A stretch of DNA of 54,222 nucleotides from an uncultured Acidiferrobacterales bacterium (GCA_964355495.1 CAYHES010000001.1:1-54222), one strand, 5' to 3'; numbered from the stretch's first letter, positions 27,066 to 52,772 are shown. Program-made: numbers and translations. The notes: a model not told the origin generated them from the sequence alone.

Positions 27066-27075
27066 ATGGTTATGT

Positions 27076-32310: not shown

Positions 32311-32579
32311 ATACATTCTCCGTTCGCGATCGTGCTGCGGCATCAATTTCTCCAGATTCCCAAGAATTATTTCTAAATTAAGGGGTAGTGAATTACGTTT
32401 GGACTTTGATTTTATATGAAAAATAGCATGATCAATCAGGCGACGTAGCGAAAACATGACTTGTGGGGTATGCATGCTGACAAGTGGCGGCATAGTTTCA
32501 TTGGTTAAGAATCAACTGCGACAACTGACCGTTCATCCGCTAGAATAAGCCGTGTTTCGGTAGCCTGAGTATTCTGCCC

Positions 32580-34541: not shown

Positions 34542-34750
34542 CTTTATATCAAACTGCAAGATGTCGCTTGATGTTGGACAAAAACTATTGATTACTAATC
34601 ATAGAATATCGTGTAGCTCAACAATATATATCCTTCCTCTTTGGCTCTAGTCAATCAAATTGATTAAGTCAGGCAGGGTGACAGGTCACGGAATGCGGCC
34701 TCCAGATATTGCCGCACGACTGAACTATTCTACCCCAACATGAGGCATGA

Positions 34751-37105: not shown

Positions 37106-37685
37106 TACTTAGATCGTAAAGGTTTTTATATGATTATGCCTCCCGCCCAATGACGTGCCATCCGATTGCTGGGCTAGATTAGCCGTTTCTGAAGAATCTT
37201 TAAATCTGCGTTTAGAGTCAGTTCGCGACAGAACTATGCGGCCAGATGTTGAAAAGTTCAGGCCGGGACATGCTGTAGACAGGCAGCATTCTAAGAGGAA
37301 GTTATACTAACTTGTTAATATAAAAAGAGTTATACAACCAATTATGTGACCGTACACAGAGATGTGGGTGCGACAGGTATTGGCAGTTATTGACTAGATC
37401 GGCAGCGTTTGGAAACAAATTCTTGAAAAGAAATCACATGTAATTTAAGGTGTTGCCGTTGCGAATGGGTTGAGCACAAGGAAAAACTGCCGCAAGGAGT
37501 TATGTGCTGACCATGAGCCGCTTGTTACGTCTAGGCATGGGGTATAACCGCACGGCACAGAATCGCGACTGCAGGCATTGCTTTGCAGTATAGGCGAACC
37601 TGCTCGTTTGCAACCCCAAGGTGGGATCAAGCGTGTGTTTGGTGCTGTGTTTATTGAATACTTTTCGACAAGATGCGAGGAAGAA

Positions 37686-38309
37686 ATGCGTAACGGTTTA
37701 CTGATCCTTGGCATAATTTTAAGCGGGCTTCTTGGAGCGGGCTGTGCCGGGACAACGGTTCCGGATACAGATAGTCAAGGGGCGTTCACCTGGGAACAGG
37801 AGGGTGATTACCGGATTGGCGCGGATGATCGGCTACAAATCACTGTGTGGCGGAATCCAGAGCTTTCGGCCACTGTACCTGTCAGGCCCGATGGGAAGAT
37901 TTCGGTTCCGCTGATCGGCGATGTCATGGCCGGAGGTAATACCCCCGAGCAAGTGGCGGCCTCGATCAAGCAGAAACTGACAGCTTATATCCGTGAACCG
38001 AACGTGGCCGTAATGGTGGTGGAACTTCGCAGCCATGAGTTCATTTCACGCGTGCGGGTGACAGGCGCGGTCCGTACGCCGCGATCCATGCCTTTCCGTC
38101 AGGGCATGACAGTGCTGGATGCTGTTCTGGAGGCCGGTGGACCCAATGAGTTCGCAGCACCGAACCGGGCCAAGCTCTATCGAAAAGGAAAGGACAAGAC
38201 AGATGTGGTCGATGTCGAGCTCGGCGATATCCTTAACAAAGGGAAGCTGCAGACAAACATTACCCTGAAGCCAGGGGATGTCGTGACTATCCCCGAGCGG
38301 TTGTTCTGA
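37686..38309 (+). CDS. Wza-like polysaccharide export lipoprotein (PEP-CTERM system EpsE-type)
   Basis: The lipobox is LLGAGC. Contains YRIGADDRLQITVWRNPELS and VRPDGKISVPLIGDVMAGGNTPEQV. A GAGGA ribosome-binding site lies upstream of ATG 37686. Confidence 0.85.
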   Translation: MRNGLLILGIILSGLLGAGCAGTTVPDTDSQGAFTWEQEGDYRIGADDRLQITVWRNPELSATVPVRPDGKISVPLIGDVMAGGNTPEQVAASIKQKLTAYIREPNVAVMVVELRSHEFISRVRVTGAVRTPRSMPFRQGMTVLDAVLEAGGPNEFAAPNRAKLYRKGKDKTDVVDVELGDILNKGKLQTNITLKPGDVVTIPERLF

Positions 38310-38328
38310 ACGGCAAGAGTAACTACCT

Positions 38329-39870
38329 ATGTCAACCCTTCATCCTGAGCTCATCCGCAAACTCCTCATCGGCGAGCTATTTAATTCGCGCAAGACAGCT
38401 GTTGGGATATTTGTCGTTGTGGTGCTTGCTCTAGTGGTCGCTGGTCTCGTCTGGCCAAAAGGATACGTGGCGTCGACCACAATTCTGGTGGACGAGAAAA
38501 ATATCATCCAGCCCCTGATGCTGGGCGCGGCGGTAACCACAGAGGTTGCGGATCGTTCCCGACTTGCCAGGGAGACGATTTTTGGCAGAAAGGTCATGAC
38601 CCAGCTTCTCACTGACACAGGCCGGTTGAAGGAAAGCTTTTCGCCGGAAGAGAAGGATAAGTTGTTCAAGAAGCTGACGAAGCAGACGGCTATCAGCAAT
38701 GTAACTAGAAACATCATCAAGATCGAATACCGGGACGATGATCCGGAGAATGCATTTTTAACGACCAAGCGCTATGCCGATCTGTTCATCGCTGAAGCAC
38801 TCGGCACCAAGGCCGCTGAAAGCCAGGCGGCATTCGATTTTATTGACAAGCAGGTGCATGAGTACCACGAAAAGCTTGTTCAAGCAGAAGAACAGCTCAA
38901 AGAGTTTCGCTTGGCCAATGCGGATGCGCTTCCGGGAACGGATACGGATATCGGAACACGGCTGAGCGCCCAGCAGACACGAATCGAGCAGTCTGCCCAG
39001 GAACTTAAGGAAGCGGAGATCAAGAAACGTTCCCTTGAGAAACAGCTTTCTGGTGAAGCGGAGGTCGCCACGGTTCTGTCGCGCGAAGGACAATACCGGA
39101 CACGAATTGCGGAACTTCAGTCTCAGATGGAAACGTTGCGCCTCAGTTATCACGACACCTACCCAGACATTGTTCGACTCCGTCACCAGATCGCTGATCT
39201 AAACGATGCGATCGCAGTTGATCGGAAACAGCGCGAAGCAGCCAAGGCGAGCGGTCGGGTGATTATCGATGACAGTGTTACCAATAATCCAATGTACCAG
39301 CAGCTGAAGCGCGATCTCTCGCAGACTCAGATTACTATTGATACCCTGAATGCGCGCATCATCGAGGCCAAGCGTCAGATGAGTAGTACACTTGAACGCG
39401 GTAAGCGTGTACACGGTGGCGAAGTAACACTTGCCGAGCTTACCCGCGATTATCAGGTCAATCGCGACATTTACCAGGACCTGCTAAAGCGCAGGGAAAA
39501 CGCGCGCGTGTCCATGAATCTTGACAAGGAAAAGCAGGGCCTCTCATTCAGAATTCAGGAGCCGGCGACATTGCCGATTGATCCAAGCGGTTTGCTTTTC
39601 AAGCATTTTATTATTGCAGCGCTGGTACTTGGTGTGCTTGTTCCTGTAGGGCTGGTATATGCCAAGTTGCAAATCGACCCGAGGATTCGGGTCGGGAGCA
39701 TGGTAGCGGAGCGCAACAATTTGCCGTTGCTAGCCGTAATTCCGCATCTTTGGCAGCAGACTGAAATCCAGGTTGTCCGCCAGGAGATACAGTGGTTGTA
39801 TCTGATCGCTGCAGGAACACTGACGGTCATGGCGCTGCTTGCTACGTTGCGCATTGTGCGGATGATTTGA
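38329..39870 (+). CDS. Polysaccharide chain-length determinant (Wzz/PCP, PEP-CTERM locus type)
   Basis: It has an N-terminal transmembrane segment, a long coiled-coil periplasmic region and a C-terminal transmembrane segment. It lies immediately upstream of the BY-kinase-like gene. Confidence 0.8.
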   Translation: MSTLHPELIRKLLIGELFNSRKTAVGIFVVVVLALVVAGLVWPKGYVASTTILVDEKNIIQPLMLGAAVTTEVADRSRLARETIFGRKVMTQLLTDTGRLKESFSPEEKDKLFKKLTKQTAISNVTRNIIKIEYRDDDPENAFLTTKRYADLFIAEALGTKAAESQAAFDFIDKQVHEYHEKLVQAEEQLKEFRLANADALPGTDTDIGTRLSAQQTRIEQSAQELKEAEIKKRSLEKQLSGEAEVATVLSREGQYRTRIAELQSQMETLRLSYHDTYPDIVRLRHQIADLNDAIAVDRKQREAAKASGRVIIDDSVTNNPMYQQLKRDLSQTQITIDTLNARIIEAKRQMSSTLERGKRVHGGEVTLAELTRDYQVNRDIYQDLLKRRENARVSMNLDKEKQGLSFRIQEPATLPIDPSGLLFKHFIIAALVLGVLVPVGLVYAKLQIDPRIRVGSMVAERNNLPLLAVIPHLWQQTEIQVVRQEIQWLYLIAAGTLTVMALLATLRIVRMI

Positions 39871-39871
39871 C

Positions 39872-40825
39872 ATGAGCAAGATCGAAAAGGCCCTGAGTCG
39901 CGCACGCAATGAAAAGGGCCTTGTTGTCGTCGGGAGCCGTCAACGGAGCGGCGAACCTGACCAACCAGACAGCCAGAGTCGCGATCTTGTAGCGGCGGAA
40001 GGTGCGACTGCAATAAGCAAGTCGCGCGTCGATTCCACCGCAGCGATCGCTCGGATGAACGAGCCGAGTTTGCGCGACATGTCTGAACTTGCGCTACAGC
40101 GCATTATTTATCCGGACATGGCTGAGAACAGTACAGTACAGGCCTTCCGTGAGATCCGCACACGAATACTGCAGAAGACCAAAGGACAAAACTGCATCAT
40201 CATGGTCACTTCTGTGACCGGGGATAGCGGTAGTTCGTTTGTCGCGACAAATCTGGGCGTGGCGTTCTCTTTTGATGCCGGCAAGACGGCACTTCTTGTA
40301 GATTGTAATCTGCGCAATCCGGGATTACAGAAGCTTTTTCCAGATAAGGTTCCACTCGGTATTACGGACTACCTCGAGAAAGAAGATTTGGATGTCGCAG
40401 ATATTATCCATTCTATCGGCATAGAGCGGTTGCGAGTAATTCCCGCTGGTGACCAACGCGAAATCCCGAGTGAGTATTTTACGTCGATCAGGATGAAGCA
40501 GATGCTAAGCAGCATTCGACAGCGTTATGCCGAACGATTCATTCTCATTGATGCCCCACCTGTGAGTGAAACGGCGGATACCCAGATTCTGGCTGAACTG
40601 TGCGATTACATCCTCTTGGTGGTCCCATACGGAAAGGTTACAAATGGGCAAGTAGAGGCCAGCATAAAGTCGATCGATAGTAAGAAGCTGCTTGGTATCG
40701 TTTTTAATAATGAGCCGAATGTGCCAAGCATTGACTGGAAAGAAATGCTAAGAACCTCCTATGTACCTTTATGGAATTGGCTTCTTCGGTTAAACAGAAC
40801 AATTAGAAATGCAGCGCATACTTGA
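39872..40825 (+). CDS. BY-kinase-like (MinD/ParA-fold) protein of the PEP-CTERM locus type, with an atypical Walker A
   Basis: Walker A' (ALLVDCNLRNP) and Walker B (FILIDAPP) are present. The Walker A position reads VTSVTGDSGSSF, with no Lys. There is no C-terminal Tyr cluster. Confidence 0.7.
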   Translation: MSKIEKALSRARNEKGLVVVGSRQRSGEPDQPDSQSRDLVAAEGATAISKSRVDSTAAIARMNEPSLRDMSELALQRIIYPDMAENSTVQAFREIRTRILQKTKGQNCIIMVTSVTGDSGSSFVATNLGVAFSFDAGKTALLVDCNLRNPGLQKLFPDKVPLGITDYLEKEDLDVADIIHSIGIERLRVIPAGDQREIPSEYFTSIRMKQMLSSIRQRYAERFILIDAPPVSETADTQILAELCDYILLVVPYGKVTNGQVEASIKSIDSKKLLGIVFNNEPNVPSIDWKEMLRTSYVPLWNWLLRLNRTIRNAAHT

Positions 40826-42164
40826 TAGATCACGCACTATCACTTCAAAGTCTGGCACGGCAGTTATTATCAGCCTTCTGGTTGCTGGCCATTTGATGCA
40901 GACCTCCCATGCTGGTGAGTTCGCCTATGGGGTCGGCTATCTCGGCGAGCACAGCGATAACATTCGACGCACTCCGACAGACCCTCAAAGTGAATGGGTC
41001 AACTCTGCAATTGCGGGAGTTGTTTACCTTGAAAATGGCCCGGCACTCGATGCCCATTTACTGGCGCAGGCAGAGTACCGTGATTACAAGAATGATATTT
41101 ATAACGATGGACCGGTTTATTATGCCGACGCGTCCTTGCTCTGGCGAATCACACCGCAGCGCCTCAATTGGGTTTTCGTTGATCGTTACAGCCAAGTCAC
41201 GCGGGATGTCACGCTTCCTGATACACCCGACAATCGTGTAAATGCCAACGTACTCGACACAGGGCCGGATTTTTACATACGATTTGATCAAGTTAATACA
41301 CTGGTGCTGGGATTGCGCTATGGGAACGCCTCCTATAGCGAAGGTGATCTTGATAGCAATCGCTACGGCGCCTCTGCACGATGGCAATATGCATCAACAG
41401 CGGAAACAACCTATTCACTGAACTACGAAGCTGAACAGGTCAAGTATGACAACGAGATTCTGAATGAAAACGTCATGCGGCAGGATTTATTCATCAGAGC
41501 AGAAAGACGCCAAGCCCGCGCACGATTTCGCATGGATCTCGGTGCCACTCGCTTAGATCGGGACCGAACCGGTGGAACGTCCGGAAATCTCGCACGTTTG
41601 GAGTGGTCGCAGCAGCTTACCTCTGTGTCGACAGCCGGTATCCAGCTTGCACGTGAATATCTTGATGCTGGGACAGTATTGCTCTCCACGGCAACGAGTC
41701 CGACCCCTGCACCGGGCGCACCACCTTCTTCATCTGCAACAGGTGAAGTAACTAACGACTTCTTCTACACGAAGCGTGCAGAGGCTTACTATAATCGTAG
41801 CGACAGTAGTTATGGTCTGAGTGCGAGGGCCTACTATCGTGACTTGGATTACGAAATGTCACCGCAGGATCGTCAGGAAGCCGGTGGAAGGATTGATGTT
41901 ACATATAATCCATCCAGCGTTCTGGCAACAACGGTATACGGGAGTTACCTCGGCGTACAATATCAGAGCATTACCCGGGATGATCAGGAGAGCGAGGCTG
42001 GGATCCGTTTTCTGTACAGGCTCAACAGAAATCTCAGCACCATACTTGAGGGGCGGAAGACGTGGCGTAACAGCACAGATGTATTACAAGAATATACTGA
42101 CAGAAGGGTGCTGTTCTCGCTGCTATACAGCAGCAGCCCGTTGTTTGCCCCCGTAAGGAGATGA
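40809..42164 (+). CDS. Outer-membrane beta-barrel protein (PEP-CTERM system-associated type)
   Basis: It has a signal peptide ending SHA-GE, an alternating aromatic/polar pattern rich in Y, N, R and D, and a C-terminal ...VLFSLLYSS region. Confidence 0.65.
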   Translation: MQRILDRSRTITSKSGTAVIISLLVAGHLMQTSHAGEFAYGVGYLGEHSDNIRRTPTDPQSEWVNSAIAGVVYLENGPALDAHLLAQAEYRDYKNDIYNDGPVYYADASLLWRITPQRLNWVFVDRYSQVTRDVTLPDTPDNRVNANVLDTGPDFYIRFDQVNTLVLGLRYGNASYSEGDLDSNRYGASARWQYASTAETTYSLNYEAEQVKYDNEILNENVMRQDLFIRAERRQARARFRMDLGATRLDRDRTGGTSGNLARLEWSQQLTSVSTAGIQLAREYLDAGTVLLSTATSPTPAPGAPPSSSATGEVTNDFFYTKRAEAYYNRSDSSYGLSARAYYRDLDYEMSPQDRQEAGGRIDVTYNPSSVLATTVYGSYLGVQYQSITRDDQESEAGIRFLYRLNRNLSTILEGRKTWRNSTDVLQEYTDRRVLFSLLYSSSPLFAPVRR

Positions 42165-42173
42165 CTGGCGGCC

Positions 42174-43244
42174 ATGTATCTTGATTATTTCAAGCTCAGG
42201 GAATTTCCGTTCCGGCTGACGCCGGATACCGAGTTTCTGTACATGAGTAATGTGCACGCACGCGCCAAGGCCTACATGGACTACAGCGTGTGGAACCGCG
42301 AGGGCTTCGTGGTCATCACCGGTGAAATCGGCTGCGGCAAGACCATCCTTATCAAGAAACTCTTATCCGAACTGGAGGAAGACAACTTCTTGGTGGCCAA
42401 GATCTTCCAGACCCAGCTCGATGAGGTCGAGTTTCTGCAAGCGGTGCTGGTTGAGTTCGGGCTCAATCCGTTCAATGCCAAGAAGGTCGAGCTGATCGAC
42501 ATGCTCAACACCTTCCTGGTGGACAGTTACCGCGAGATGAAACAGTTGGTGCTGATCGTCGACGACGCACACAATCTGAGCCTGAAGGCACTGGAAGAGA
42601 TACGCATGCTCTCCGGTCTTGAAACCCAGAAGGAGAAAGTCTTGCATGTCATTCTGGTCGGTCAGCCGCAACTCAACGTGATGCTGGATGCGCCGGAGCT
42701 GGAGCAGCTGGTGCAGCGCGTGCGCCTGCGTTTCCACGTCAGGCCGTTGGCGCCGGACGAAACGGCAGAGTATATCGCCCATCGTCTCAAGGTAGCGGGC
42801 GCTACACGCACAGATTTATTTACTCTAGAGACTATGTCGGTGATCTACAAGTACACAGGCGGCGTGCCGCGTCTTATCAACACTCTGTGCGACACAGCGC
42901 TTACCGTTGCCTACGCCGATAGTCTTCCGACAGTCACAATCGATGTTCTCAAGTCGGCACTTGACGAATTGCAGTGGGTACCGTTTGAGCGGCGCGCTGG
43001 TGGGCGGCTTGCGAAGCCCGCAGCGAAGGGCGACCGTTCCCATACGGTGCGTGAGCAGGACAAGCTGATCGCCAACATCGGAAACCGCCTGAATCAGATG
43101 GATAGCTTGGTGCCGTCACTGTCGATGATTTCCGACCGCATGGGGAACATTGAGGCGTTATTGACGAGTATCGTAACTCTCTTGAAGCAGGGTCGGGCGG
43201 AGCGGGTTGTCCCACCGCGCAAGGTCGGCGGGAAGGACCACTAG
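42174..43244 (+). CDS. ExeA/GspA-like AAA ATPase (PEP-CTERM locus secretion ATPase type)
   Basis: Contains YLDYFKLREFPFRLTPDTEFLY, Walker A GEIGCGKT and Walker B LVLIVDDAH. Confidence 0.85.
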   Translation: MYLDYFKLREFPFRLTPDTEFLYMSNVHARAKAYMDYSVWNREGFVVITGEIGCGKTILIKKLLSELEEDNFLVAKIFQTQLDEVEFLQAVLVEFGLNPFNAKKVELIDMLNTFLVDSYREMKQLVLIVDDAHNLSLKALEEIRMLSGLETQKEKVLHVILVGQPQLNVMLDAPELEQLVQRVRLRFHVRPLAPDETAEYIAHRLKVAGATRTDLFTLETMSVIYKYTGGVPRLINTLCDTALTVAYADSLPTVTIDVLKSALDELQWVPFERRAGGRLAKPAAKGDRSHTVREQDKLIANIGNRLNQMDSLVPSLSMISDRMGNIEALLTSIVTLLKQGRAERVVPPRKVGGKDH

Positions 43245-43258
43245 GCAAAGTATGCCCC

Positions 43259-45232
43259 ATGTGTGGTATCGCTGGGATTCTCAACCTGACGGCCAATCGC
43301 CCACCGAGTGAAACCGAACTCGGTGCAATGATTGGTCAACTGCATCACCGTGGCCCGGATGGCTACGGCTATTTTTCGGATACACAGGTTGGCCTTGCTC
43401 ATGCGCGACTCAGCATCATCGATATTGCCGGCGGCAAGCAGCCGATCCACAACGAAGACCGGACCATCTGGGTCAGTTTCAACGGCGAAATCTTCAATTA
43501 CATCGAACTGCGCGCGATTCTTGAACAACAGGGTCATCGTTTCTACACGCACTCCGACACCGAAGTTATCGTGCACCTGTATGAACAGCACGGCGATGAC
43601 TTTGTCCAGCACCTGAACGGCCAGTTCGCGATCGCGCTCTGGGACCAGCAGCGCCGGCGCCTGGTGCTGGCCCGAGACCGCGCCGGTATCCGCCCACTGT
43701 TCTACACGCAGACGCGCAGCCGGTTGCTGTTTGCCTCCGAGGTCAAGGCACTGTTCGTGCATTCCGAACTTCCGCGCCGACTCAATCTTGAGGCGCTTGC
43801 CCAGGTTTTCACCTACTGGTCGCCGCTCGCGCCAGCGACGGTTTTCGAGGGCGTCACGGCGCTGCCTCCAGGACACATCTTGGTGGCAGAAAACGGTCGC
43901 ATCCAGACGCGGTGTTACTGGGACTGGTTATTTCCCGAACCGCCCTTGCCCAAAGAACGGCCTGCCGCAGAATATGCAGAAGAGTTGCGTGCTTTGCTGA
44001 TCGATGCGGTGAAGTTGCAGTTGCGCTCGGACGTCCCGGTAGGTGCATACTTGAGCGGCGGGCTCGATTCTTCGATTATCACCTCGTTGATCAAGAACTT
44101 TACGGATGTGCCACTGCGTACATTCTCGGTAACGTTTGATGACGCAGAATATGACGAGAGCATCTTCCAGCAGGAACTGGTGGATTACCTCGATACCCAG
44201 CACACCGCGTTACGTTGTACCACGGCGGATATTTGTGATGCGTTCCCGAAGGTGATCTGGCACACCGAGACCCCGATCGTGCGCACGGCGCCGACGCCGC
44301 TCATGCTGCTGTCCGCCAAGGTGCGCGCTGAGGGCTACAAGGTGGTGCTGACCGGGGAAGGGGCGGACGAGGTGTTCGGTGGCTACGACCTGTTCAAGGA
44401 GGCCAAGATCCGGCGCTTCTGGGCGCGCCAGCCACACTCAAAAATGCGCCCGCGTATCCTCGAACGGCTCTATCCGTATCTCAAGCATTCGCCTGCATCT
44501 GGGCGAGCGTTTACCGAAAATTTCTTCAGCCAGGGTATGGAGCACAAGGACCGGGCGTACTTCTCCCATATTCCTCGCTGGACGACGACAAGACGTATTG
44601 CCCAATTTTTCTCGCCGGAGATGCAGCGCACAGTGAGTGGCTGGGACCCGTATGCTGCCATTATGCAAACACTGCCGCCAGGTATCGAACGCTGGATTCC
44701 GCTTGGCCGCGACCAGTATGTCGAGGCGCACACCCTGATGGCCGGCTACCTGCTCTGCTCCCAGGGCGATCGCGTGGCCATGGCCAACTCCATCGAGGGG
44801 CGTTTTCCATTTCTGGATCACCGCGTGATCGAATTCGGCAACCGCCTGCCGTCGCGTTGCAAACTGATGGGCCTCACCGAGAAATATATTTTGAAGAAAT
44901 CTATGACTGGATTGTTGCCAGAATCGGTGCGTACACGCACCAAGCAACCCTACCGCGCACCCGACAGCCAGAGCTTCTTCCGCAACGGGGTGGCGGCAGA
45001 TTATGTGGCAGAACTGTTCAGCGAACGGCGCCTGCGCGAGGCGGGCTACTTCGATCCGCGCGTGGTGGCCAAGCTTTACGAGAAGTGCCGTGCCGGACGC
45101 GCCATCGGCTTCGCTGACAACATGGCCTTCGTCGGCATCCTGTCCACCATGCTGGTGGATGAGCAGTTCATCCGGCCGGTTGCGTTGACTGGGACGATCG
45201 CTCGGCCTTTTGCCAAGCAGATTTCGGCTTAG
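43259..45232 (+). CDS. Asparagine synthase (glutamine-hydrolysing) family amidotransferase (exosortase-A-associated amidotransferase type)
   Basis: It has the MCGIAGIL Ntn-glutaminase start and the synthetase-domain PP-loop-like motif YLSGGLDSS. Confidence 0.9.
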   Translation: MCGIAGILNLTANRPPSETELGAMIGQLHHRGPDGYGYFSDTQVGLAHARLSIIDIAGGKQPIHNEDRTIWVSFNGEIFNYIELRAILEQQGHRFYTHSDTEVIVHLYEQHGDDFVQHLNGQFAIALWDQQRRRLVLARDRAGIRPLFYTQTRSRLLFASEVKALFVHSELPRRLNLEALAQVFTYWSPLAPATVFEGVTALPPGHILVAENGRIQTRCYWDWLFPEPPLPKERPAAEYAEELRALLIDAVKLQLRSDVPVGAYLSGGLDSSIITSLIKNFTDVPLRTFSVTFDDAEYDESIFQQELVDYLDTQHTALRCTTADICDAFPKVIWHTETPIVRTAPTPLMLLSAKVRAEGYKVVLTGEGADEVFGGYDLFKEAKIRRFWARQPHSKMRPRILERLYPYLKHSPASGRAFTENFFSQGMEHKDRAYFSHIPRWTTTRRIAQFFSPEMQRTVSGWDPYAAIMQTLPPGIERWIPLGRDQYVEAHTLMAGYLLCSQGDRVAMANSIEGRFPFLDHRVIEFGNRLPSRCKLMGLTEKYILKKSMTGLLPESVRTRTKQPYRAPDSQSFFRNGVAADYVAELFSERRLREAGYFDPRVVAKLYEKCRAGRAIGFADNMAFVGILSTMLVDEQFIRPVALTGTIARPFAKQISA

Positions 45233-45249
45233 ATCGGGATTGGCACGCT

Positions 45250-46779
45250 ATGCTCCTGCATCAATTTCTTGAAGCGAGTAGCCAGCAGCTGCCGGACAAG
45301 GCTGCGCTGGTGTGCGACGGCCAACGCTACAGTTATGCCCAGATCGACCAAATGGCGACCGAACTCGCCGTGTTCCTGCAGCAACGTGGTGTGCGGCGTG
45401 ATGATCGGGTTGCCATCTTTATGGACAACTCTGTTGAGACGGTAGTTAGCATCTATGCCGCACTCAAGGCGGGCGCCGTGTTCATGCCGGTCAATCCGCT
45501 GACCAAGCATGACAAGCTCGCTTACCTGCTCAATGATTCACGCGCTAGCGCGTTGATAACGCATGCCGCGCTGCATGAAGTGTTCAGCGGCGCCCTCGCG
45601 CACAATGAGAGCGTGCACAGCTGCATCGTCATTGGAGAACTGCGTGTTGGGGGCACGGATAAGCGCCTGTTGCGCTATGCCAGCGTACAGGATGTGCCGG
45701 GAGCTCTCGTGGCCCCGGGTAGTATTGACCAGGATCTCGCTGCCATTATCTATACTTCCGGGTCCACCGGTGATCCGAAAGGCGTGATGCTGACTCACCT
45801 GAACATGGTAAGCGCCACGAACTCGGTGAGCAGCTATCTCGGGTTGCAGAATGAAGATGTTGTCTTGTGCGTGCTGCCGCTCGCATTCGACTACGGCCTG
45901 TATCAGGTTCTAATGGGCTTCAAGCTCGGGGCGACCGTGGTCGTGGAGCGCTCGTTCGCTTTCCCGGTAAAGGTATTGGAGGTAATGGCGCGAGAACGCG
46001 TCACGGTCCTGCCGGGCGTGCCGACAATCTTCTCACTACTTATGAACATCAAGACCCTGTCGCATCATGATCTGGCGTCACTGCGCATGATCACCAATAC
46101 AGCCGCAGCGCTCTCCGAGCAGCATATTAAGGATTTGCGGGAGCTGTTTCCGCAGGCGCAGTTGTTTTCCATGTATGGCCTTACCGAGTGCAAGCGTGTG
46201 ACTTACCTTCCGCCGGAACAACTCGAGGCACGCCCGACCAGCGTAGGTCGAGGCATGCCTAACCAGGAAGTCTGGCTGGTGGATGAGGGCGGTAACCGGC
46301 TGCCAAACGGCAGCACCGGTGAACTGGTGATTCGCGGTAGCAATGTCATGCGCGGCTACTGGGAAAAGCCGGACGAGACGGCCAAGCGACTCAGGCCCGG
46401 CCCGAATCCGGGAGAGATGTTGCTGTACTCTGGCGATATTTTCCGTACCGATGACGAGGGCTATCTCTATTTCGTAGCACGCAAGGACGACGTAATTAAG
46501 AGCCGCGGAGAGAAGGTGAGTCCGCGTGAGGTGGAGAATGTGCTCTACAGTATGGAGGGTGTACAGGAAGTGGCTGTAATAGGAGTGACAGACCCGGTTC
46601 TTGGGCAGGCCGTAAAAGCCTTTATAGCATTGCGCCCGGGATTCAGTTACTCAGAGCGCGATGTCATCAAATATTGTCTTGGCCATCTGGAAAGCTTTAT
46701 GGCGCCCAAGCAGGTAGTATTTGTCGATGCCTTGCCCAAAACTGACACCGGCAAGATAAAAAAGTCTGGACTCGCCTGA
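45250..46779 (+). CDS. AMP-forming acyl-CoA/acyl-carrier ligase (ANL superfamily, exosortase-A-associated ligase type)
   Basis: Contains IIYTSGSTGDPKGV, YGLTE, GDIFRTDDEGYLYFVARKDDVIK and a C-terminal TGKIKK. Confidence 0.9.
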   Translation: MLLHQFLEASSQQLPDKAALVCDGQRYSYAQIDQMATELAVFLQQRGVRRDDRVAIFMDNSVETVVSIYAALKAGAVFMPVNPLTKHDKLAYLLNDSRASALITHAALHEVFSGALAHNESVHSCIVIGELRVGGTDKRLLRYASVQDVPGALVAPGSIDQDLAAIIYTSGSTGDPKGVMLTHLNMVSATNSVSSYLGLQNEDVVLCVLPLAFDYGLYQVLMGFKLGATVVVERSFAFPVKVLEVMARERVTVLPGVPTIFSLLMNIKTLSHHDLASLRMITNTAAALSEQHIKDLRELFPQAQLFSMYGLTECKRVTYLPPEQLEARPTSVGRGMPNQEVWLVDEGGNRLPNGSTGELVIRGSNVMRGYWEKPDETAKRLRPGPNPGEMLLYSGDIFRTDDEGYLYFVARKDDVIKSRGEKVSPREVENVLYSMEGVQEVAVIGVTDPVLGQAVKAFIALRPGFSYSERDVIKYCLGHLESFMAPKQVVFVDALPKTDTGKIKKSGLA

Positions 46780-46826
46780 GCGAGCCGCAAGTGATCCAAC
46801 GTGATCGAGGAAAAGGGGAAACCATA

Positions 46827-47078
46827 ATGCAAGACATCAAGTCACAGGTGCGCACGTACATTTTCGATAATTTCATCATGGCCGGCGACCCCGGCGATTT
46901 GCAGGATGGCGACTCTTTCATGGAGCGGCATATTCTCGATTCCACTGGCTTCATTGAGTTGATCACGTTTCTCGAGGAAGCATTCGGTATCAAGGTTGAG
47001 GATGACGATATGGTTCCGGAGAATCTTGATAGCCTCGACAAGATAGATATTTTCCTTCGCAAGAAGAAGGCGAGCTGA
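46827..47078 (+). CDS. Acyl carrier protein
   Basis: It is 83 aa. The phosphopantetheine-site context is HILDSTGFIELITFLEE. A Gly/A-rich ribosome-binding site lies upstream of ATG 46827. Confidence 0.75.
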   Translation: MQDIKSQVRTYIFDNFIMAGDPGDLQDGDSFMERHILDSTGFIELITFLEEAFGIKVEDDDMVPENLDSLDKIDIFLRKKKAS

Positions 47079-47116
47079 ATTGCCGACCTCCGAAACTCAC
47101 CCGACAGGAGCTGGCT

Positions 47117-48106
47117 GTGACCTCAACATTGCTTAATGCCCGCGTGCTGGACATCGACTGTTCTGCTGAAGTAGACCGCATTGCCAAACGGCTGGTGGAA
47201 ATTGTCGCGCGTACGCTGCACCGCCGTGGCATGATTATCGCACTGTCCGGCGGTGTGGACAGTTCGGTGTGCGCGGCGCTTGCGGTTCGCGCCCTTGGGC
47301 CAGGCAAGGTGTTTGGTCTGATGTTGCCGGAAAAGGAGTCCTCCTCGACCAGCCTGACGCGTGGCAAACTGATTGCCGAACAGCTTGACATCAGTTATGC
47401 GGTTGAGAATATCGGACCTACGCTTGAGGCAATTGGTTGTTACCGCTGGCGCGACGAAGCCATGCGCGTGGTGTTTCCTGAATACGGGGCGGACTGGAAG
47501 AGCAAAATTGCGATTGCGGGGGGCGCGCAGGGGCGCATCAACTACTTCAAACTGGTCGTGCAATCACCGAGTGGCGAAATCCAGGAGACGCGTCTTCCGC
47601 TTAAGGAATATCTGCAGATCGTAGCCGCCACCAACTACAAGCAGCGCATACGCAAGACAATCGAATACTTCCATGCTGACCGGCTGAACTACGCGGTGAT
47701 CGGTACACCGAATCGCCTTGAGTACGACCAGGGGTTCTTCGTCAAGAACGGCGATGGATCGGCGGACCTCAAACCGATTGCCCATCTCTACAAAACACAG
47801 GTCTACGCACTCGCCAGGTATTTTGGATTGCCAGCGGAAATCTGTTCCGCCGCGCCCACCACGGATACCTACAGCATGCAGCAGGGGCAGGACGAATTCT
47901 ATTTCGCACTGCCGTACGACAAGATGGACGTTGCATTGTGGGCGCACAATCACGCAGTGCCGGCCAACGCGCTCGCGGCTCATCTCGGAATCAGCGATGC
48001 CCAGGCAGATTTCATTTATAAGGATATCGATGCCAAGCGGCAGACCACGCGCTATTTGCATGCGAAGCCGGTTCTTGTGGAGCCTGTAACCGAGATCACC
48101 GTGTGA
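47117..48106 (+). CDS. NAD synthetase (NadE)-like PP-loop ATP pyrophosphatase without a glutaminase domain
   Basis: Contains the PP-loop motif ALSGGVDSSVCAAL and, later, DGSADLKPIAHLYKTQVYALARYFGLP. It has a GTG start with an AGGAG ribosome-binding site. Confidence 0.75.
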   Translation: MTSTLLNARVLDIDCSAEVDRIAKRLVEIVARTLHRRGMIIALSGGVDSSVCAALAVRALGPGKVFGLMLPEKESSSTSLTRGKLIAEQLDISYAVENIGPTLEAIGCYRWRDEAMRVVFPEYGADWKSKIAIAGGAQGRINYFKLVVQSPSGEIQETRLPLKEYLQIVAATNYKQRIRKTIEYFHADRLNYAVIGTPNRLEYDQGFFVKNGDGSADLKPIAHLYKTQVYALARYFGLPAEICSAAPTTDTYSMQQGQDEFYFALPYDKMDVALWAHNHAVPANALAAHLGISDAQADFIYKDIDAKRQTTRYLHAKPVLVEPVTEITV

Positions 48107-49017
48107 CGCCACCCACGACAGACGAAGAAATTGAACTTTTCCAAAAGCTGATTGCCCGGCTTTCATTTGGTCTGAACCTACTTCCGGACAAGCCGGAGGA
48201 AACAGTGGATAGCACGCTACGTGCACTCTGGCACGCTGCTGCCGATGTGCCGGTTTCCGTCCAGAAGGCAACTACACTGCCGCTGACTGCCCTCGATGCG
48301 ATGGGTATCGATCGGCTGCATATGCTCATAGCTCAGCGCGTCACGGGCGTTCCGCTTGCACATCTGACAGGTCGTCAGCACTTCATGGGGCTGGAGCTTC
48401 TGGCCGGCAAAGAGGCTCTGATACCGCGTCGGGAAACCGAGATCCTAGGCCGCGGTGCGTACGAAGTCTTGAAAAGTCTGGCTGAAGAGCGGGACGAGGT
48501 CACAGTTGTGGATGTCTGCACGGGCTCCGGCAATTTGGCGCTGGCACTCGCTTATCACGTACCGAAGGCGCGAGTGTTTGGCGCGGATCTCTCGGGCGAG
48601 GCCGTGACGTTGGCTCAACGCAATGTATGTCATTTGGGACTACAGAAACGGGTCGAGTTCCGGGAGGGAGACCTGCTGGCGCCGTTTGATGCGCCGGCGT
48701 TCCATGGCCGCGTTTGTCTTATGGTCTGCAATCCGCCGTACATATCAAGCAAGAAGGTCGACACCATGCCGGGGGAAATCATCTCGCATGAGCCGCGTTT
48801 AGCTTTTGACGGCGGGCCGTTTGGCATACGTATTGTCGAACGGCTGATGCGTGAGGCACCGCGTTTTCTGCGTAAGGGCGGCTTTCTGGCATTTGAAGTT
48901 GGTCTCGGTCAGGGACCGGCGCTTGCGAAGCGGCTGGCTGGGAACAAAAGTTATACCAGGCGGCGTTCCATCGAAGACGAAAACGGGGATATCAGAGTAC
49001 TCATAGCCGAAATCTGA
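48103..49017 (+). CDS. HemK/PrmC-like SAM-dependent N-methyltransferase
   Basis: SAM motif I is VVDVCTGSGNLALALA and the catalytic motif is CNPPYI. There is a GTGA start/stop overlap with the NadE-like gene. Confidence 0.8.
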   Translation: MTPPTTDEEIELFQKLIARLSFGLNLLPDKPEETVDSTLRALWHAAADVPVSVQKATTLPLTALDAMGIDRLHMLIAQRVTGVPLAHLTGRQHFMGLELLAGKEALIPRRETEILGRGAYEVLKSLAEERDEVTVVDVCTGSGNLALALAYHVPKARVFGADLSGEAVTLAQRNVCHLGLQKRVEFREGDLLAPFDAPAFHGRVCLMVCNPPYISSKKVDTMPGEIISHEPRLAFDGGPFGIRIVERLMREAPRFLRKGGFLAFEVGLGQGPALAKRLAGNKSYTRRRSIEDENGDIRVLIAEI

Positions 49018-49125: not shown

Positions 49126-50406
49126 TTAGAGACGCCAAATTCTGAGACCGGCGGCACGCAGTGCAGCCGTGTCGAAAGCAGACTTTACGTCAATGAAGCA
49201 TCCCTTGGCAGCAATCTTCTTCGCTAACCTGTCGGGACTCATCTTCAGGAAATCCGAGTGCGCGACCGCGGCGACCATGGCATCCGCCACTGGCAGATCA
49301 TCCCACGACACCAACTCAATGCCGTATTCATGGTGGGCCTCTTCCTTGAGCGGCACCGGATCGTGCACGAATACCTCGATGCCATACGTCCGCAGCTCAG
49401 CGATCACGTCGATGACGCGCGAGTTGCGTAGGTCCGGCACGTTCTCCTTGAAAGTGAGGCCAAGGACGTTGACCTTGGCGCCTTTGATGGAGCTACCGGA
49501 GGCGATCATCTTCTTGACGGTTTGCTCGGCAATGAACTTGCCCATGTTGTCGTTGATGCGCCGTCCGGCTAGGATCACTTCCGGGTGGTAACCGATCATC
49601 TCCGCCTTGTACGTGAGATAGTAGGGGTCGACGCCAATGCAGTGACCGCCGACCAGGCCGGGGCGGAAGGGCAGGAAGTTCCACTTGGTGCCGGCGGCCT
49701 GCAGTACTTCCAGCGTGTCGATACCGAGCTTGTTGAAGATCAGCGCCAGCTCGTTCATGAGCGCGATATTGAGATCGCGCTGGGTGTTTTCGATGACCTT
49801 GGCGGCTTCGGCCACGGCGATGCTGGAAGCGCGGTGCACCCCGGCTGTGATAACGGAACTGTAGAGATTGGCGACAGCGTCCAGGGTAGCGGCGTCGTCA
49901 CCCGATACGACTTTCACAATCCTCGTGAGCGTGTGTTCCTTGTCGCCCGGATTGATGCGCTCGGGTGAATAGCCGATGTGAAAATCCTTTTTCCACTTCA
50001 GGCCAGAATTTTGTTCGAGCACCGGAATGCAGACCTCCTCGGTGGCGCCTGGATAGACGGTTGACTCGTAGATCACGATCGCGCCCTTTTTCATGTTCTG
50101 GCCGACCGTGCGGCTGGCGCCCACGAGAGGGCTGAAGTCGGGCAGATGGGCGTTGTCGATCGGGGTGGGGACGGCAACAATGATGTAGTCGGCAGCAGCG
50201 AGCGCAGTGGGATCGGTGGTGGCCTTGAGTTTCGTGGCTGCGCGCAGCGCCTCACTCGACACTTCACCGGTGGGGTCTACGAAGTTCTGATAGCTGCGTA
50301 CCTTTTCGGTGCTCAGGTCGAAGCCGATGGTTTCGCGGATCTTTCCGAATTCCACGGCGAGCGGCAGGCCGACATATCCGAGCCCGACAACGGCAATAGT
50401 GCTCAT
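49126..50406 (-). CDS. Nucleotide-sugar 6-dehydrogenase, TviB/WbpO/CapL-like (UDP-N-acetylhexosamine dehydrogenase)
   Basis: MSTIAVVGLGYVGLPLAVEFGK matches the TviB/WbpO N-terminus. GGHCIGVDP carries the catalytic Cys. The start is taken at ATG 50406 rather than the longest ORF. Confidence 0.8.
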   Translation of the reverse strand: MSTIAVVGLGYVGLPLAVEFGKIRETIGFDLSTEKVRSYQNFVDPTGEVSSEALRAATKLKATTDPTALAAADYIIVAVPTPIDNAHLPDFSPLVGASRTVGQNMKKGAIVIYESTVYPGATEEVCIPVLEQNSGLKWKKDFHIGYSPERINPGDKEHTLTRIVKVVSGDDAATLDAVANLYSSVITAGVHRASSIAVAEAAKVIENTQRDLNIALMNELALIFNKLGIDTLEVLQAAGTKWNFLPFRPGLVGGHCIGVDPYYLTYKAEMIGYHPEVILAGRRINDNMGKFIAEQTVKKMIASGSSIKGAKVNVLGLTFKENVPDLRNSRVIDVIAELRTYGIEVFVHDPVPLKEEAHHEYGIELVSWDDLPVADAMVAAVAHSDFLKMSPDRLAKKIAAKGCFIDVKSAFDTAALRAAGLRIWRL

Positions 50407-50576
50407 TTTAGAATATCCCCGAAAGATTGACTGCTGAAGAGGCTGTTTGTTTCGGGCCAGTTTAACCGAAGAAATTGCGGTATTCCAACGCCGGCAGCAT
50501 GTCACCACATGGTAACCTGCATATACTATGAATTCGTGACGGCGAATGGTGTAATCCAACAAGGCGAGGTGGCACG

Positions 50577-51506
50577 TTGAACAGGAAGGTGTTGATTACC
50601 GGCGGGGCGGGATTCATCGGCTCACATCTGGCCGAGCATCTGCTCGCGGCCGGAAACAGCGTGCGGGTGCTGGATAACCTGTCGACCGGCAAACGCGAGA
50701 ATTTGCCCGCGCATCCGCAGCTTGAGTTCGTGCAGGGCGATATCCGTGACAAGCACCTTGTCTCCGAATCCGCTCACGGCATGGACGCCATTGTGCATTT
50801 GGCCGCAGTCGCGTCCGTGCAGGCGAGTGTGGATGATCCCACTGGCACGCATGAGACCAATTTCGACGGCACCCTGTATCTGCTTGAAGCCGCGCGCAAG
50901 GAAAACATCAGGCGCTTTCTCTATGCCAGTTCGGCCGCCGTGTATGGCGACAATACGCGTCTGCCGCTGGTGGAAGAGGAAATTCTCAATCCGTTGTCGC
51001 CGTATGCCGCCGACAAACTGGCCGGTGAGTACTATTTGCGTTTTTACCATGCGAAGTTCGGAATCGAGACGACGGCATTCCGGTTCTTCAATATTTTCGG
51101 GCCGCGCCAGGATCCGTCTTCACCCTATTCGGGAGTAATCAGCATTTTCATCGAGCGAGTCAGCCGCGGCGAACCGGTCACCGTGTTCGGCGATGGTCGG
51201 CAGACGCGCGATTTCGTTTATGTCGGCGATCTGGTGAAGTTGCTGGCGCAGGCGCTGACGCGTGCCGAAACGGCCGGGCAGGTGATTAATGTCGGCCGTG
51301 GCAAGCAATGCTCGCTGCTCGAGCTGCTGGAGGCGCTGGAGAAGCTTGCTGGCAAACCGGTGGAACGCCGATTCGCAGCAGCACGCCTGGGCGATATTGT
51401 GCATTCACGTGCGGATATTTCCCGACTCGTGCGCCTGCTGGGCAAGGCGCCGGAGACCGACATCGTTACCGGGCTTGGCGAGATCTTGCGGCACCGGAAC
51501 GGCTGA
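50577..51506 (+). CDS. NAD-dependent epimerase/dehydratase (extended SDR, possibly WbpP/TviC-like)
   Basis: Contains VLITGGAGFIGSHL and the catalytic motif SPYAADK. It is divergent from the dehydrogenase gene. It has a TTG start. Confidence 0.8.
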   Translation: MNRKVLITGGAGFIGSHLAEHLLAAGNSVRVLDNLSTGKRENLPAHPQLEFVQGDIRDKHLVSESAHGMDAIVHLAAVASVQASVDDPTGTHETNFDGTLYLLEAARKENIRRFLYASSAAVYGDNTRLPLVEEEILNPLSPYAADKLAGEYYLRFYHAKFGIETTAFRFFNIFGPRQDPSSPYSGVISIFIERVSRGEPVTVFGDGRQTRDFVYVGDLVKLLAQALTRAETAGQVINVGRGKQCSLLELLEALEKLAGKPVERRFAAARLGDIVHSRADISRLVRLLGKAPETDIVTGLGEILRHRNG

Positions 51507-51560
51507 CGGTCTACTGAAATACTCCCTCTTTACTTGGATTGAATCGCCTGCGGCGATGAT

Positions 51561-51583
51561 TGGTGGGGCAGGCCACACCCCAC
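51561..51583. repeat. REP-like unit (GGTGGGGCAGGNCCCCACC family)
   Basis: The sequence tggtggggcaggccacaccccac lies just downstream of the epimerase stop. Confidence 0.65.
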
Positions 51584-51656: not shown

Positions 51657-51984
51657 ATGCGTGAATACACCCACAACGACAAAGCGCCGTTCAGCGAATG
51701 GCTGAACAAACTCGACCGGCCCGGTGAAGGCTCGGGTCATGACCCGCATTGACCGTATCCGGCGCGGGAATTTTGGTGATACGAAGTCGGTTGGAGAGGG
51801 GGTATTCGAACTGCGGATAGCCTTTGGCCCTGGTTATCGTGTCTATTACGCAAGGCAAGGTCAGGAGATTGTTGTTCTCCTGTGTGGCGGTGATAAAGGG
51901 TCACAGCCGAGAGACATAGCCAGAGCAAAAGAGTTCTGGCGTGACGTTAACCGGAGTGCAGACCATGGCAACCAGACCCTATAG
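51657..51984 (+). pseudogene. HigB/RelE-superfamily addiction-module killer protein, apparently frameshifted
   Basis: ATG 51657 gives MREYTHNDKAPFSEWLNKLDRP, then the frame is lost near 51717-51723 (cggcccggtg). The family sequence continues in the next frame as VKARVMTRIDRIRRGNFGDTKSVGEGVFELRIAFGPGYRVYYARQGQEIVVLLCGGDKGSQ. Confidence 0.65.
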
Positions 51985-52273
51985 CGAAACGCTTAACGAA
52001 GCGCTGCGTGATCCTCGCGACGCCGCGGCTTATCTTGAAGCTGCGCTGCAGGAGGAAGACGAGGAAGGTTTTCTCCTCGCGCTTCGCACCGTGGCGGAAG
52101 TGCATGGGATTGCCGAGGTCGCGCGCAAGGCCGGTGTCGGGCGCGAGAGCCTCTACAAGACGTTAAGCGAAGATGGCAACCCGAAGCTGCATACGCTCAC
52201 GGCGTTACTGCATAGTCTTGGATTGCGTCTCTCCGTGACCCCGGAGAACCAACAGTCTGCAACGAATTCTTAA
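51965..52273 (+). CDS. Addiction-module antidote protein (XRE-type HTH antitoxin)
   Basis: Contains YLEAALQEEDEEGFLLALRTVAEVHGIAEVARKAGVGRESLYKTLSEDGNPKLHTLTALLHSLGLRLSV. It overlaps the toxin 3' end. Confidence 0.8.
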   Translation: MATRPYSETLNEALRDPRDAAAYLEAALQEEDEEGFLLALRTVAEVHGIAEVARKAGVGRESLYKTLSEDGNPKLHTLTALLHSLGLRLSVTPENQQSATNS

Positions 52274-52371
52274 ACGCTTGAGGCTTGGCACGAACCAGGC
52301 CACAGTCAACGCAGCGCATTTCAATGCGACCACTCGTGCGCAGCCGCACGCATTATTGAGTGCCAACACCT

Positions 52372-52457
52372 CCCGGCTCGTTCGCCTGCTGGGCAAGACA
52401 CCGGAGACCGATATTGTTACCGGGCTTGGCGAGATCTTGTGGCACCGGAATGGTTGA
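52372..52457 (+). repeat. Diverged duplicate of the last 86 nt of the epimerase gene (51421-51506)
   Basis: There are about 9 mismatches in 86 nt. The copy translates to SRLVRLLGKTPETDIVTGLGEILWHRNG-stop, against SRLVRLLGKAPETDIVTGLGEILRHRNG-stop in the intact gene. A second shared 20-mer, ttgaatcgcctgcggcgatg, follows both copies (51539-51558 and 52669-52688). Confidence 0.9.
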
Positions 52458-52600: not shown

Positions 52601-52772
52601 AGTGACCATGATCCGGCGTGTTGCCGGCACTTGTAGGGCAGGACCATGCCACATGGCGTGGCAATACTTTGAATCGCCTGCGGCGATGGTTCTCCCGAAG
52701 GGGAAAGGATAAAACACTGCGCGCTATTTACCGTTCCCATCAGAATCTACCGATACCAAGATCCAATCCGAG

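Follow-up and report, generated by a model that had tools for sequence, protein, structure and literature searches.

The window analysed here is a stretch of 54,222 nucleotides from an uncultured Acidiferrobacterales bacterium (GCA_964355495.1 CAYHES010000001.1:1-54222), and its positions 43259-49017 carry a cassette of five tightly packed genes for an AsnB-like amidotransferase, an adenylating ligase, a carrier protein, a NadE-like enzyme and a HemK-like methyltransferase. After comparing these genes with their homologs, we tentatively propose that the cassette is a module that tailors a cell-surface polymer in a carrier-protein-dependent way, a reading that we favour with somewhat less than even confidence. 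In dozens of species the NadE-like gene lies beside the ligase and carrier-protein genes, natural fusions join the NadE-like protein to domains of the same kinds, the ligase has a VinN-like substrate pocket, and the methyltransferase covaries with the ligase type. The five genes are as follows.

43259-45232, + strand: AsnB-like glutamine-dependent amidotransferase, 657 amino acids (aa), MCGIAG start, SGGLDSS motif
45250-46779, + strand: stand-alone ANL adenylation enzyme (the ligase) of the VinN type, 509 aa, YTSGSTGDPKG motif
46827-47078, + strand: dedicated carrier protein, 83 aa, LDSTG motif with the serine as the phosphopantetheine site
47117-48106, + strand: NadE-like PP-loop ATP-pyrophosphatase, 329 aa, SGGVDSS motif, without a glutaminase domain
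48103-49017, + strand: HemK/PrmC-like NPPY N-methyltransferase, 304 aa, accessory member of the cassette

A first, sequence-only reading of this DNA had described five co-directional genes with short gaps, one overlap and the motifs above, and the open reading frames (ORFs) on the + strand agree with it throughout. Starting from the ATPase gene upstream of the AsnB-like gene, the gaps are 14, 17, 47 and 38 nt, and the NadE-like and methyltransferase genes share a GTGA overlap. The ATG of the carrier-protein gene is preceded by GGGGA 8 nt upstream, and independent gene callers also gave 83 aa. The cassette is indeed appended to exopolysaccharide (EPS) export genes, as had been claimed, since genes of the XrtA/PEP-CTERM type end 14 nt upstream. 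A promoter and terminator scan found no signal above chance between the export genes and the cassette and no internal one either; with signals at chance level, the scan was uninformative for operon boundaries.

The five proteins were assigned to families by hidden Markov model (HMM) scans against NCBIfam and Pfam with curated cut-offs, and the families named earlier held. The AsnB-like protein combines an N-terminal cysteine glutaminase with a PP-loop synthetase (Pfam GATase_7 and Asn_synthase) and passes TIGR01536 (506.5 bits, cut-off 267.1); it matches the XrtA/PEP-CTERM amidotransferase model TIGR03108 at 454.8 bits (E 5e-136), under the cut-off of 816.9. The best NCBIfam model of the ligase is TIGR03098 (exosortase-A-associated acyl-CoA ligase), at 486.1 bits (E 1e-145) and under the cut-off of 592.35. 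The sequence-only reading had seen a resemblance to the exosortase-A-associated families in the amidotransferase, the ligase and the carrier protein. The first two are clear paralogs of those families, both falling under the curated cut-offs, while the carrier protein gave weak matches only.

One observation concerns the genetic linkage of the NadE-like gene. More than 8000 close homologs of its product were found (the top 120 at 73-91% identity), and one contig of a Hainich groundwater metagenome encodes an identical copy. The same five-gene cassette is present on three long contigs, where export genes precede it in two cases. When one genome per GTDB species was scanned for the NadE-like gene, at least 595 species matched, and 80 loci were taken for a linkage survey. 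These loci belong to Beta- and Gammaproteobacteria, with single metagenome-assembled genomes (MAGs) assigned to Gemmatimonas, Longimicrobiales, Myxococcales, Desulfocapsaceae and Roseivirgaceae. Neighbours were counted by tblastn and ORF clustering, and many absences fall at contig ends. The ligase accompanies the NadE-like gene in 79/80 loci and an acyl carrier protein (ACP) of about 85 aa in 71/80; an AsnB-like gene was found by ORF cluster in 58/80, mostly less than 5 kb away, and a HemK-like methyltransferase in 25/80. Three gene orders recur: AsnB-ligase-ACP-NadE-methyltransferase, which is that of the window, AsnB-ACP-ligase-NadE and AsnB-ACP-ligase-methyltransferase-NadE. Among cultured bacteria, Thiomonas delicata DSM 16361 and Thiocapsa marina 5811 have the five-gene type. 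Recurrence in dozens of species puts this arrangement far above chance. With a ligase/ACP linkage in about 70-79 of the 80 loci, the NadE-like and HemK-like genes are thus cassette genes and not the housekeeping nadE and prmC.

Protein fusions point in the same direction. A search of 1.84 billion cluster representatives with the NadE-like protein returned 357 matches at E<1e-30, with full-length members down to 34% identity. Among the natural fusions were an AMP-binding plus NadE-like protein of 849 aa, a NadE-like plus AMP-binding_C plus PP-binding protein of 510 aa, and a NadE-like plus ACPS (4'-phosphopantetheinyl transferase) protein of 479 aa with a ligase gene upstream. An ACP also adjoins the NadE-like homologs of 42% and 34% identity. 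Two homologs at 36-39% identity (L092, 7001-7987; L093, 585-1574) keep the insertion described below and have no adjacent ACP or ligase gene; they may represent a second functional subgroup of the family. Therefore, the linkage claim is restricted to the clade above about 40% identity, plus the one case at 34%. One of these two homologs lies beside genes for a CTP-transferase and a CDP-alcohol phosphatidyltransferase, and the other follows a sugar-nucleotidyltransferase-like gene.

The NadE-like protein is a NadE family member by HMM, by its SGGxDS PP-loop and by its fold. It passes NF002048 (PRK00876, 'NAD(+) synthase') at 496 bits (cut-off 313) and TIGR00552 at 140 bits (cut-off 63.65). An alignment of 41 sequences contains about 130 invariant columns, including SGGVDS, NxKQRxR, GFFVKNGDG and QGQDEFYF, and the SGGxDS, GFFxKxGDG and DE motifs are kept. 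In the comparison with Pyrococcus NadE, an insertion at about residues 106-171 divides the match in two, and in the AlphaFold2 (AF2) model (pLDDT 79.6, pTM 0.81) the inserted part, about 55 residues, forms a helix and a three-stranded sheet. The low-confidence loops of the model presumably coincide with the mobile loops of NadE. Foldseek placed NadE structures in all of the top 42 PDB matches to the model (2e18, E 1.6e-14). Because the fold and the catalytic motifs are those of NadE, the predicted reaction almost certainly consists of the ATP-dependent adenylation of a carboxylate, which ammonia then attacks. Structure prediction, which had been suggested as a check, thus revealed the NadE fold and an inserted subdomain, and the substrate is not identifiable from the model. 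The linkage and the fusions bear on this point: the substrate is therefore probably a carrier-bound or coenzyme A (CoA)-bound carboxylate rather than nicotinic acid adenine dinucleotide (NaAD). Like NaAD, a dicarboxylyl-phosphopantetheine would carry a carboxylate at the tip of an arm joined through a phosphodiester.

The ligase provides a clue to the acyl group. Its best single-stretch PDB match over the full length is VinN (3WVN, 246 bits), and in the specificity-pocket region VinN scores E 1.4e-36 compared with 4e-25 for the runner-up. VinN loads 3-methylaspartate or aspartate on a stand-alone ACP. In this stand-alone adenylation enzyme of vicenistatin biosynthesis, which binds (2S,3S)-3-methylaspartate or L-Asp in the manner of a beta-amino acid, the amino group is held by D230 and the pocket is shaped by F231 and S299; the beta13-beta14 loop, with K330 and R331 as its key residues, has one residue fewer than is usual (PMC11253843). 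We take K330 and R331 to hold the remaining carboxylate, on which PMC11253843 is not explicit. The VinN segments SWDFGLYKVL, FTNSAAAL and MYGQTECKRISIMPP align without a gap to AFDYGLYQVL, ITNTAAAL and MYGLTECKRVTYLPP of the window ligase. In this ungapped alignment (3WV4), D230, F231, S299, K330 and R331 become D, Y, T, K and R, and the beta13-beta14 loop is likewise short. The reading as a generic acyl ligase was therefore rejected, since the VinN-like pocket suggests a substrate of the aspartate type. Judging from these pocket residues, the ligase probably charges the adjoining carrier protein with an aspartate-like acidic amino acid.

Pocket typing of 73 aligned cassette ligases gave four types:

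D-KR (VinN-like): 27 loci, including the window and Sinorhizobium
S/N-KR: about 11 loci, two of them variants with the Arg and without the Lys
G: 4 loci
'TEATAR': 29 loci, with a loop of normal length and no Asp

The loop Arg is kept in 72/73 cassette ligases of any subtype, the exception being a second, non-adjacent ligase in one locus (L071). Because this Arg is nearly universal, a distal carboxylate appears to be the substrate feature common to all subtypes, and an amino group on the substrate would be expected only for the D-KR ligases. One MAG (JAEZCN01) carries two separate ACP-ligase-NadE cassettes (L025 and L028), and in another locus (L050, 50-4149) the NadE-like gene lies between two ligases, a 'TEATAR' type upstream and a D-KR type downstream. 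Apparently, one organism can run two substrate variants of the cassette.

The nearest PDB relatives of the carrier protein are type II peptidyl carrier proteins (2MY5, E 2e-7), DltC, PltL and HitD, and not the ACPs of fatty acid synthase (FAS). Its NCBIfam matches are weak, namely ACP_for_OlsHI (the ornithine-lipid ACP, 56 bits, below threshold) and AmcB. The OlsHI lead was dropped as uninformative, the score being far below threshold.

The methyltransferase passes the HemK family model TIGR00536 (173.9 bits, cut-off 115.5) and falls just under that for PrmC, TIGR03534 (196.1 bits, cut-off 199.1). Its nearest PDB match is E. coli HemK/PrmC (E 5.5e-24), with VCNPPYIS aligned to the NPPY of that enzyme, and no prfA lies beside its gene in the window. 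The gene is present in 23-24/27 loci with a D-KR ligase and in 0/44 with other ligase types, and the co-occurrence with the ligase set, suggested earlier as a check, was thus recovered within one ligase subtype. Known targets of NPPY methyltransferases are planar nitrogens, for example the glutamine amide or exocyclic amines. By analogy, the amide produced by the NadE-like enzyme would be a chemically natural target, with the amino group as the alternative; amide N and amine N are both open because the methyltransferase tracks the amino-binding Asp of the ligase and not the NadE-like gene. S. medicae, which has a D-KR ligase, encodes a shorter HemK-like homolog (46% identity, without the N-terminal domain) 10 kb from its operon, next to a GNAT gene and a Wzx-like flippase gene.

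Overall, after combining these data, we provide a putative scheme for the cassette, in which the substrate, the order of steps, the site of methylation, the acceptor and the transferase are those that we infer. The VinN-like ligase would adenylate an acidic, aspartate-like amino acid and pass it as a thioester to the phosphopantetheine arm of the carrier protein, probably via the side-chain carboxyl. One carboxylate would stay free, namely that gripped by the Lys-Arg pair of the ligase. The NadE-like enzyme would then adenylate this free carboxylate of the carrier-bound acyl group, and ammonia would convert it into a carboxamide; in doing so, it would fill the place of the pyridoxal phosphate (PLP)-dependent decarboxylase in vicenistatin and canonical exosortase-A loci. 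The AsnB-like enzyme may carry out a second, glutamine-dependent amidation of some target, and in the D-KR subtype the HemK-like NPPY enzyme may N-methylate the product at the new amide or the amino group. The finished group would be moved to the EPS, where the de-N-acetylases encoded in the same locus could plausibly have freed an amine for it. The amine of a deacetylated amino sugar is a plausible acceptor because polysaccharide de-N-acetylases are the commonest non-core neighbours of the cassette, with homologs within 10 kb in 19 loci (deacetylase ORF clusters 11 and 15 occur in 19 and 13 loci), and the window itself has three or four. Glycosyltransferases, deacetylases, flippases or export genes lie within 10 kb in most loci. 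The sequence-only reading had offered two functions for the gene set. The evidence favours the ACP-tethered decoration, given the fusions of the NadE-like protein to ligase, carrier and 4'-phosphopantetheinyl transferase (PPTase) domains. The other, in which the whole set amidates and methylates uronic-acid carboxylates directly, is unlikely, as TviB/TviC-like genes occur in few loci at low identity and the Sinorhizobium operon stands alone.

A candidate acyl-transferase for the cassette was found outside the window. A family of about 350 aa (cluster 10) is encoded directly downstream of the NadE-like gene, or of the methyltransferase gene in Thiomonas, in about 23 species (for example L056 10982-12040, L065 11936-13051 and L039 11010-12062). 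It has no NCBIfam match and marginal GNAT-like Pfam matches, and no homolog was found in the window. Its identification with the GNAT gene near the S. medicae methyltransferase was rejected, since the two are unrelated. The AT3 acyltransferases and the SGNH protein of the window were also considered as the cassette transferase; they are not conserved near the cassette elsewhere.

The cassette was compared with several known systems. Like the window, the vicenistatin set VinN/VinL/VinO, which belongs to a pathway for a beta-amino-acid starter unit, pairs a stand-alone adenylation enzyme with the same pocket residues and a stand-alone ACP. In that set the second enzyme, a PLP decarboxylase, deals with the leftover carboxylate by removing it, whereas the window has no decarboxylase and instead a NadE-like amidating enzyme in its position, and no polyketide synthase. 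Vicenistatin is made by an actinobacterial macrolactam cluster, and the window is a proteobacterial EPS locus. The family description of TIGR03098 mentions an adjacent PLP-dependent decarboxylase (TIGR03099). The exosortase-A set (TIGR03098-03101 and TIGR03108), in which the paralogs of the window ligase and AsnB-like protein are found, occupies the same type of locus; however, it has a PLP decarboxylase and two hydrolases where the window has the NadE-like and HemK-like enzymes. No TIGR03099 decarboxylase was seen among the annotated window ORFs, and no PLP decarboxylase was among the recurrent neighbours in the 80 loci. The parallel with VinN/VinL/VinO and the XrtA set suggests two alternative fates of a carrier-bound aspartyl carboxylate, decarboxylation or amidation. 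With the NH3-dependent NAD+ synthetase NadE, the NadE-like protein has the fold, the PP-loop, the catalytic motifs and the lack of a glutaminase domain in common; unlike NadE, it has the inserted subdomain of about 55 residues, an obligate carrier/ligase linkage and fusions to those domains. In teichoic-acid D-alanylation, DltA/DltC work as proposed here, with an ANL ligase loading an amino acid on a small dedicated carrier for decoration of a surface polymer. The differences are the additional amidation and methylation steps proposed for the window and its Gram-negative EPS context. No match to DltB (MBOAT) or DltD was found among the window ORFs scanned.

The four-gene core has a counterpart in a genetically tractable model organism. 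A tblastn search against plasmids found NadE-like homologs at 55-57% identity on 116 replicons, mostly Sinorhizobium pSymB, and the S. medicae record shows a stand-alone operon of asnB, acyl carrier protein, AMP-binding protein and nadE that adjoins minCDE. Between the window and the Sinorhizobium operon, identity is 56-57% for the NadE-like protein, 52% for the ligase, 43-46% for the ACP and 49-50% for AsnB. Ramos-Vega et al. (2009) are said to have placed asnB and nadE in the SMb20651 operon. The ligase of the Sinorhizobium operon is SMb20650, as the N-terminus, LPLAFDYGLYQ and YGLTECKRCTYLPP agree with the published alignment, and we take the carrier protein encoded beside it to be SMb20651. 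By sequence, the core of the cassette is the S. meliloti pSymB asnB-SMb20651-SMb20650-nadE operon family, with orthologs of all four genes present. The smb20650 gene is co-transcribed with the ACP gene smb20651, holo-SMb20651 was produced with AcpS, and addition of SMb20650 in E. coli gave acylated SMb20651, the acyl group of which was not named (PMC7232532). SMb20650 is no substitute for FadD in oleate growth, free-fatty-acid accumulation or motility (PMC7232532). The sequence-only reading had stated that neither of its two suggested chemistries is described for this gene set; the four-gene core is in fact on record as the SMb20650/SMb20651 operon, and its function is still undefined, with SMb20651 described as needing further investigation (PMC5686131). 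The S. meliloti operon and the window share the four core families and the D-KR ligase type. They differ in that the ACP gene precedes the ligase gene in S. meliloti and follows it in the window, that the S. meliloti operon is alone beside minCDE and the window cassette is joined to XrtA export genes, and that the Sinorhizobium HemK-like gene is 10 kb off the operon and that of the window is inside the cassette. As minor leads, SMb21525-30 were rejected as tags of the Sinorhizobium cassette, being taurine genes, and a 'nadE2 Sinorhizobium' lead was wrong.

Several explanations other than a carrier-dependent polymer decoration were considered. The idea that the NadE-like protein is simply the NAD synthetase of the cell and the HemK-like protein its PrmC, placed here by chance, is largely refuted and in our view extremely improbable. 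NF002048 is exceeded, the NadE catalytic motifs are kept and TIGR03534 is missed by 3 bits; against this, the ligase/ACP synteny holds across phyla and the domain fusions agree with it, the methyltransferase is tied to one ligase subtype without an adjoining prfA, and the NadE-like gene is plasmid-borne in rhizobia. A lipid route, in which the ligase is a fatty-acyl-ACP synthetase as annotated and the product a fatty-acyl amide or amino-lipid, such as an anchor for EPS or a PEP-CTERM protein, appears improbable to us. AsnB and NadE would then amidate head-group carboxylates. The ornithine-lipid ACP as the best, subthreshold NCBIfam match of the carrier protein (56 bits) would suit such a route, as would the acylation of SMb20651 in E. 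coli with SMb20650 (PMC7232532). However, the pocket contains the amino-binding Asp and carboxylate-binding Lys-Arg of VinN, which fatty-acid ligases lack, the carrier protein is nearer to peptidyl and aminoacyl carriers than to FAS ACPs, and SMb20650 failed to replace FadD in three assays (PMC7232532).

Direct amidation of the polymer is unlikely as well, if a little less so than the lipid route. Here the AsnB-like and NadE-like enzymes would act on uronic-acid carboxylates of sugar nucleotides or of the polymer, the amides would then be methylated, and the ligase and ACP would acylate separately. AsnB-family enzymes such as WbpS are implicated in the formation of O-antigen uronamides, and TviB/TviC-like genes for an N-acetyl-hexosaminuronic acid lie directly downstream of the cassette. 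However, homologs of the latter are missing from most loci, with weak matches (27-35%) in about nine, and no sugar genes adjoin the Sinorhizobium operon. Moreover, the NadE-like gene is linked most tightly to the ACP and ligase genes, and the fusions found join its product to ligase, carrier and PPTase domains and not to sugar enzymes. Another conceivable product of the four-gene core is a diffusible amide, such as an osmolyte or a signal, with the EPS location incidental or regulatory. The Sinorhizobium operon alone by minCDE and some loci without export genes within 10 kb of the cassette speak for it, whereas surface-polymer genes lie within 10 kb in most loci and the window cassette follows the export genes after 14 nt without a terminator signal; we regard such a product as no more probable than the lipid route.

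The preferred scheme of a carrier-dependent polymer decoration has points that weigh against it, too. Because the S. meliloti operon lies outside a polysaccharide locus, the final acceptor may not be EPS, and no acyl-transferring enzyme for the cassette was identified in the window. Ramos-Vega et al. (2009) reportedly observed C12/C18 fatty-acyl SMb20651 in E. coli, which would point to lipid. Nearly all canonical catalytic motifs of NadE are retained, so that NaAD as the substrate would be compatible with the sequence. Since loading leaves one free carboxylate, two amidating enzymes are one too many, and the role of AsnB is unexplained. Additionally, the covariation of the methyltransferase with the ligase type may reflect shared ancestry rather than chemistry, and the substrate of the ligase and the product of the NadE-like enzyme are read from sequence and not from biochemistry.

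As to novelty, the four-gene core is already on record as an orphan S. meliloti operon, and paralogous families are catalogued as XrtA-associated. In the literature, nothing relevant was found that ties exosortase/PEP-CTERM to NAD synthetase, asparagine synthase, ACP or ligase; the cassette genes go unmentioned in Haft 2006, and the papers on floc formation name just 'two asparagine synthetase genes' among them. To the extent that the literature is searchable, four observations are new: the coupling, across its whole family, of the PRK00876 'NAD synthase' subfamily to a carrier and ligase, with fusions; the VinN-type pocket in a ligase annotated as a fatty-acid ligase; a HemK-like enzyme exclusive to the amino-acid-type ligase; and the five-gene version appended to an XrtA export operon. 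We speculate further that the PRK00876 subfamily is a new PP-loop amidating class acting on phosphopantetheine-tethered dicarboxylic acyl groups, which together with a VinN-like ligase would make isoasparaginyl-type groups, here N-methylated, for grafting onto exopolysaccharides; this wider claim is doubtful, and clearly more so than the tailoring role itself.

If the proposal is true, an amidating enzyme labelled NAD synthase would be one example of a systematic database misannotation, and a carrier-protein-dependent reaction would be added to the NadE family. The cassette would be to Gram-negative bacteria a counterpart of the D-alanylation of teichoic acids, and in exosortase-A loci it would offer an alternative to the branch with the decarboxylase. 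It would also provide a testable chemistry for the S. meliloti operon of the orphan ACP SMb20651, which has lacked an explanation since 2009, and for the ligase/ACP sets of exosortase (PEP-CTERM) EPS loci, on which the formation of flocs and biofilms by wastewater and groundwater bacteria is based. The ortholog in S. meliloti makes the proposal directly testable.

The remainder of the window is a large EPS locus, which contains an XrtA-type priming transferase, a Wzx-like flippase, a Wzy/O-ligase-like protein, several GT4/GT2 enzymes, WecB, two AT3 acyltransferases and an SGNH protein. The features nearest to the argument are listed below.

9896-10912, + strand: PgaB-like polysaccharide de-N-acetylase, by family matches
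17590-18513 and 22219-22872: further deacetylases, by family matches
37578-43244, + strand: five XrtA/PEP-CTERM-type export genes, for a Wza-like exporter, a chain-length determinant, a tyrosine-autokinase-like protein, an outer-membrane protein and an ATPase
49126-50562, - strand: TviB-like UDP-GlcNAc 6-dehydrogenase, convergent with the cassette
50577-51506, + strand: TviC-like 4-epimerase

Of the export genes, two score above the cut-offs of their models (TIGR03027, 207 bits, cut-off 180; TIGR03007, 352 bits, cut-off 279) and three below (TIGR03018, 192 bits; TIGR03016, 32 bits; TIGR03015, 290 bits). The TviB/TviC-like pair was recognized by NF011729 (493 bits, below the cut-off of 592) and TIGR03026 (389 bits, above the cut-off), and these genes imply an N-acetyl-hexosaminuronic acid in the polymer. 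Elsewhere, no close TviB/TviC homolog adjoins the cassette, the weak matches mentioned above being confined to about 9 of the 80 loci. The last 98 nt of the TviC-like gene (51409-51506) are repeated at 52360-52457 with 86% identity, 951 nt downstream, and a second repeat of 23 nt has a similar spacing (51539-51561 and 52669-52691). The repeats bracket a two-gene module (51724-52273) that by eye encodes a RelE/ParE-type killer protein and its antidote, which suggests an insertion or recombination scar.

Other genes of the window were noted in passing. Just ahead of the EPS locus, an AbiEi antitoxin/AbiEii nucleotidyltransferase toxin pair (type IV toxin-antitoxin, abortive infection) at 1909-3623 has a patatin-like fragment (544-1293) on one side and an outer-membrane phospholipase A1 (3770-4831) on the other. 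Between the PgaB-like deacetylase and the flippase, 10958-12778 encodes a 606-aa protein whose sole domain is an APH/choline-kinase-like phosphotransferase; it may phosphorylate the polymer or add a phospho-substituent to it. Four large genes at 25221-32493 (- strand) lie in opposite orientation within the EPS locus; their pectate-lyase-like, choice-of-anchor-Q-domain and purple-acid-phosphatase/metallophosphoesterase products with Ig-like domains may be polymer-degrading or polymer-processing enzymes. The two AT3-family membrane acyltransferases are encoded divergently at 33522-35899, just upstream of the export genes, and one of them is OpgC/MdoC-like (249 bits against a cut-off of 338).

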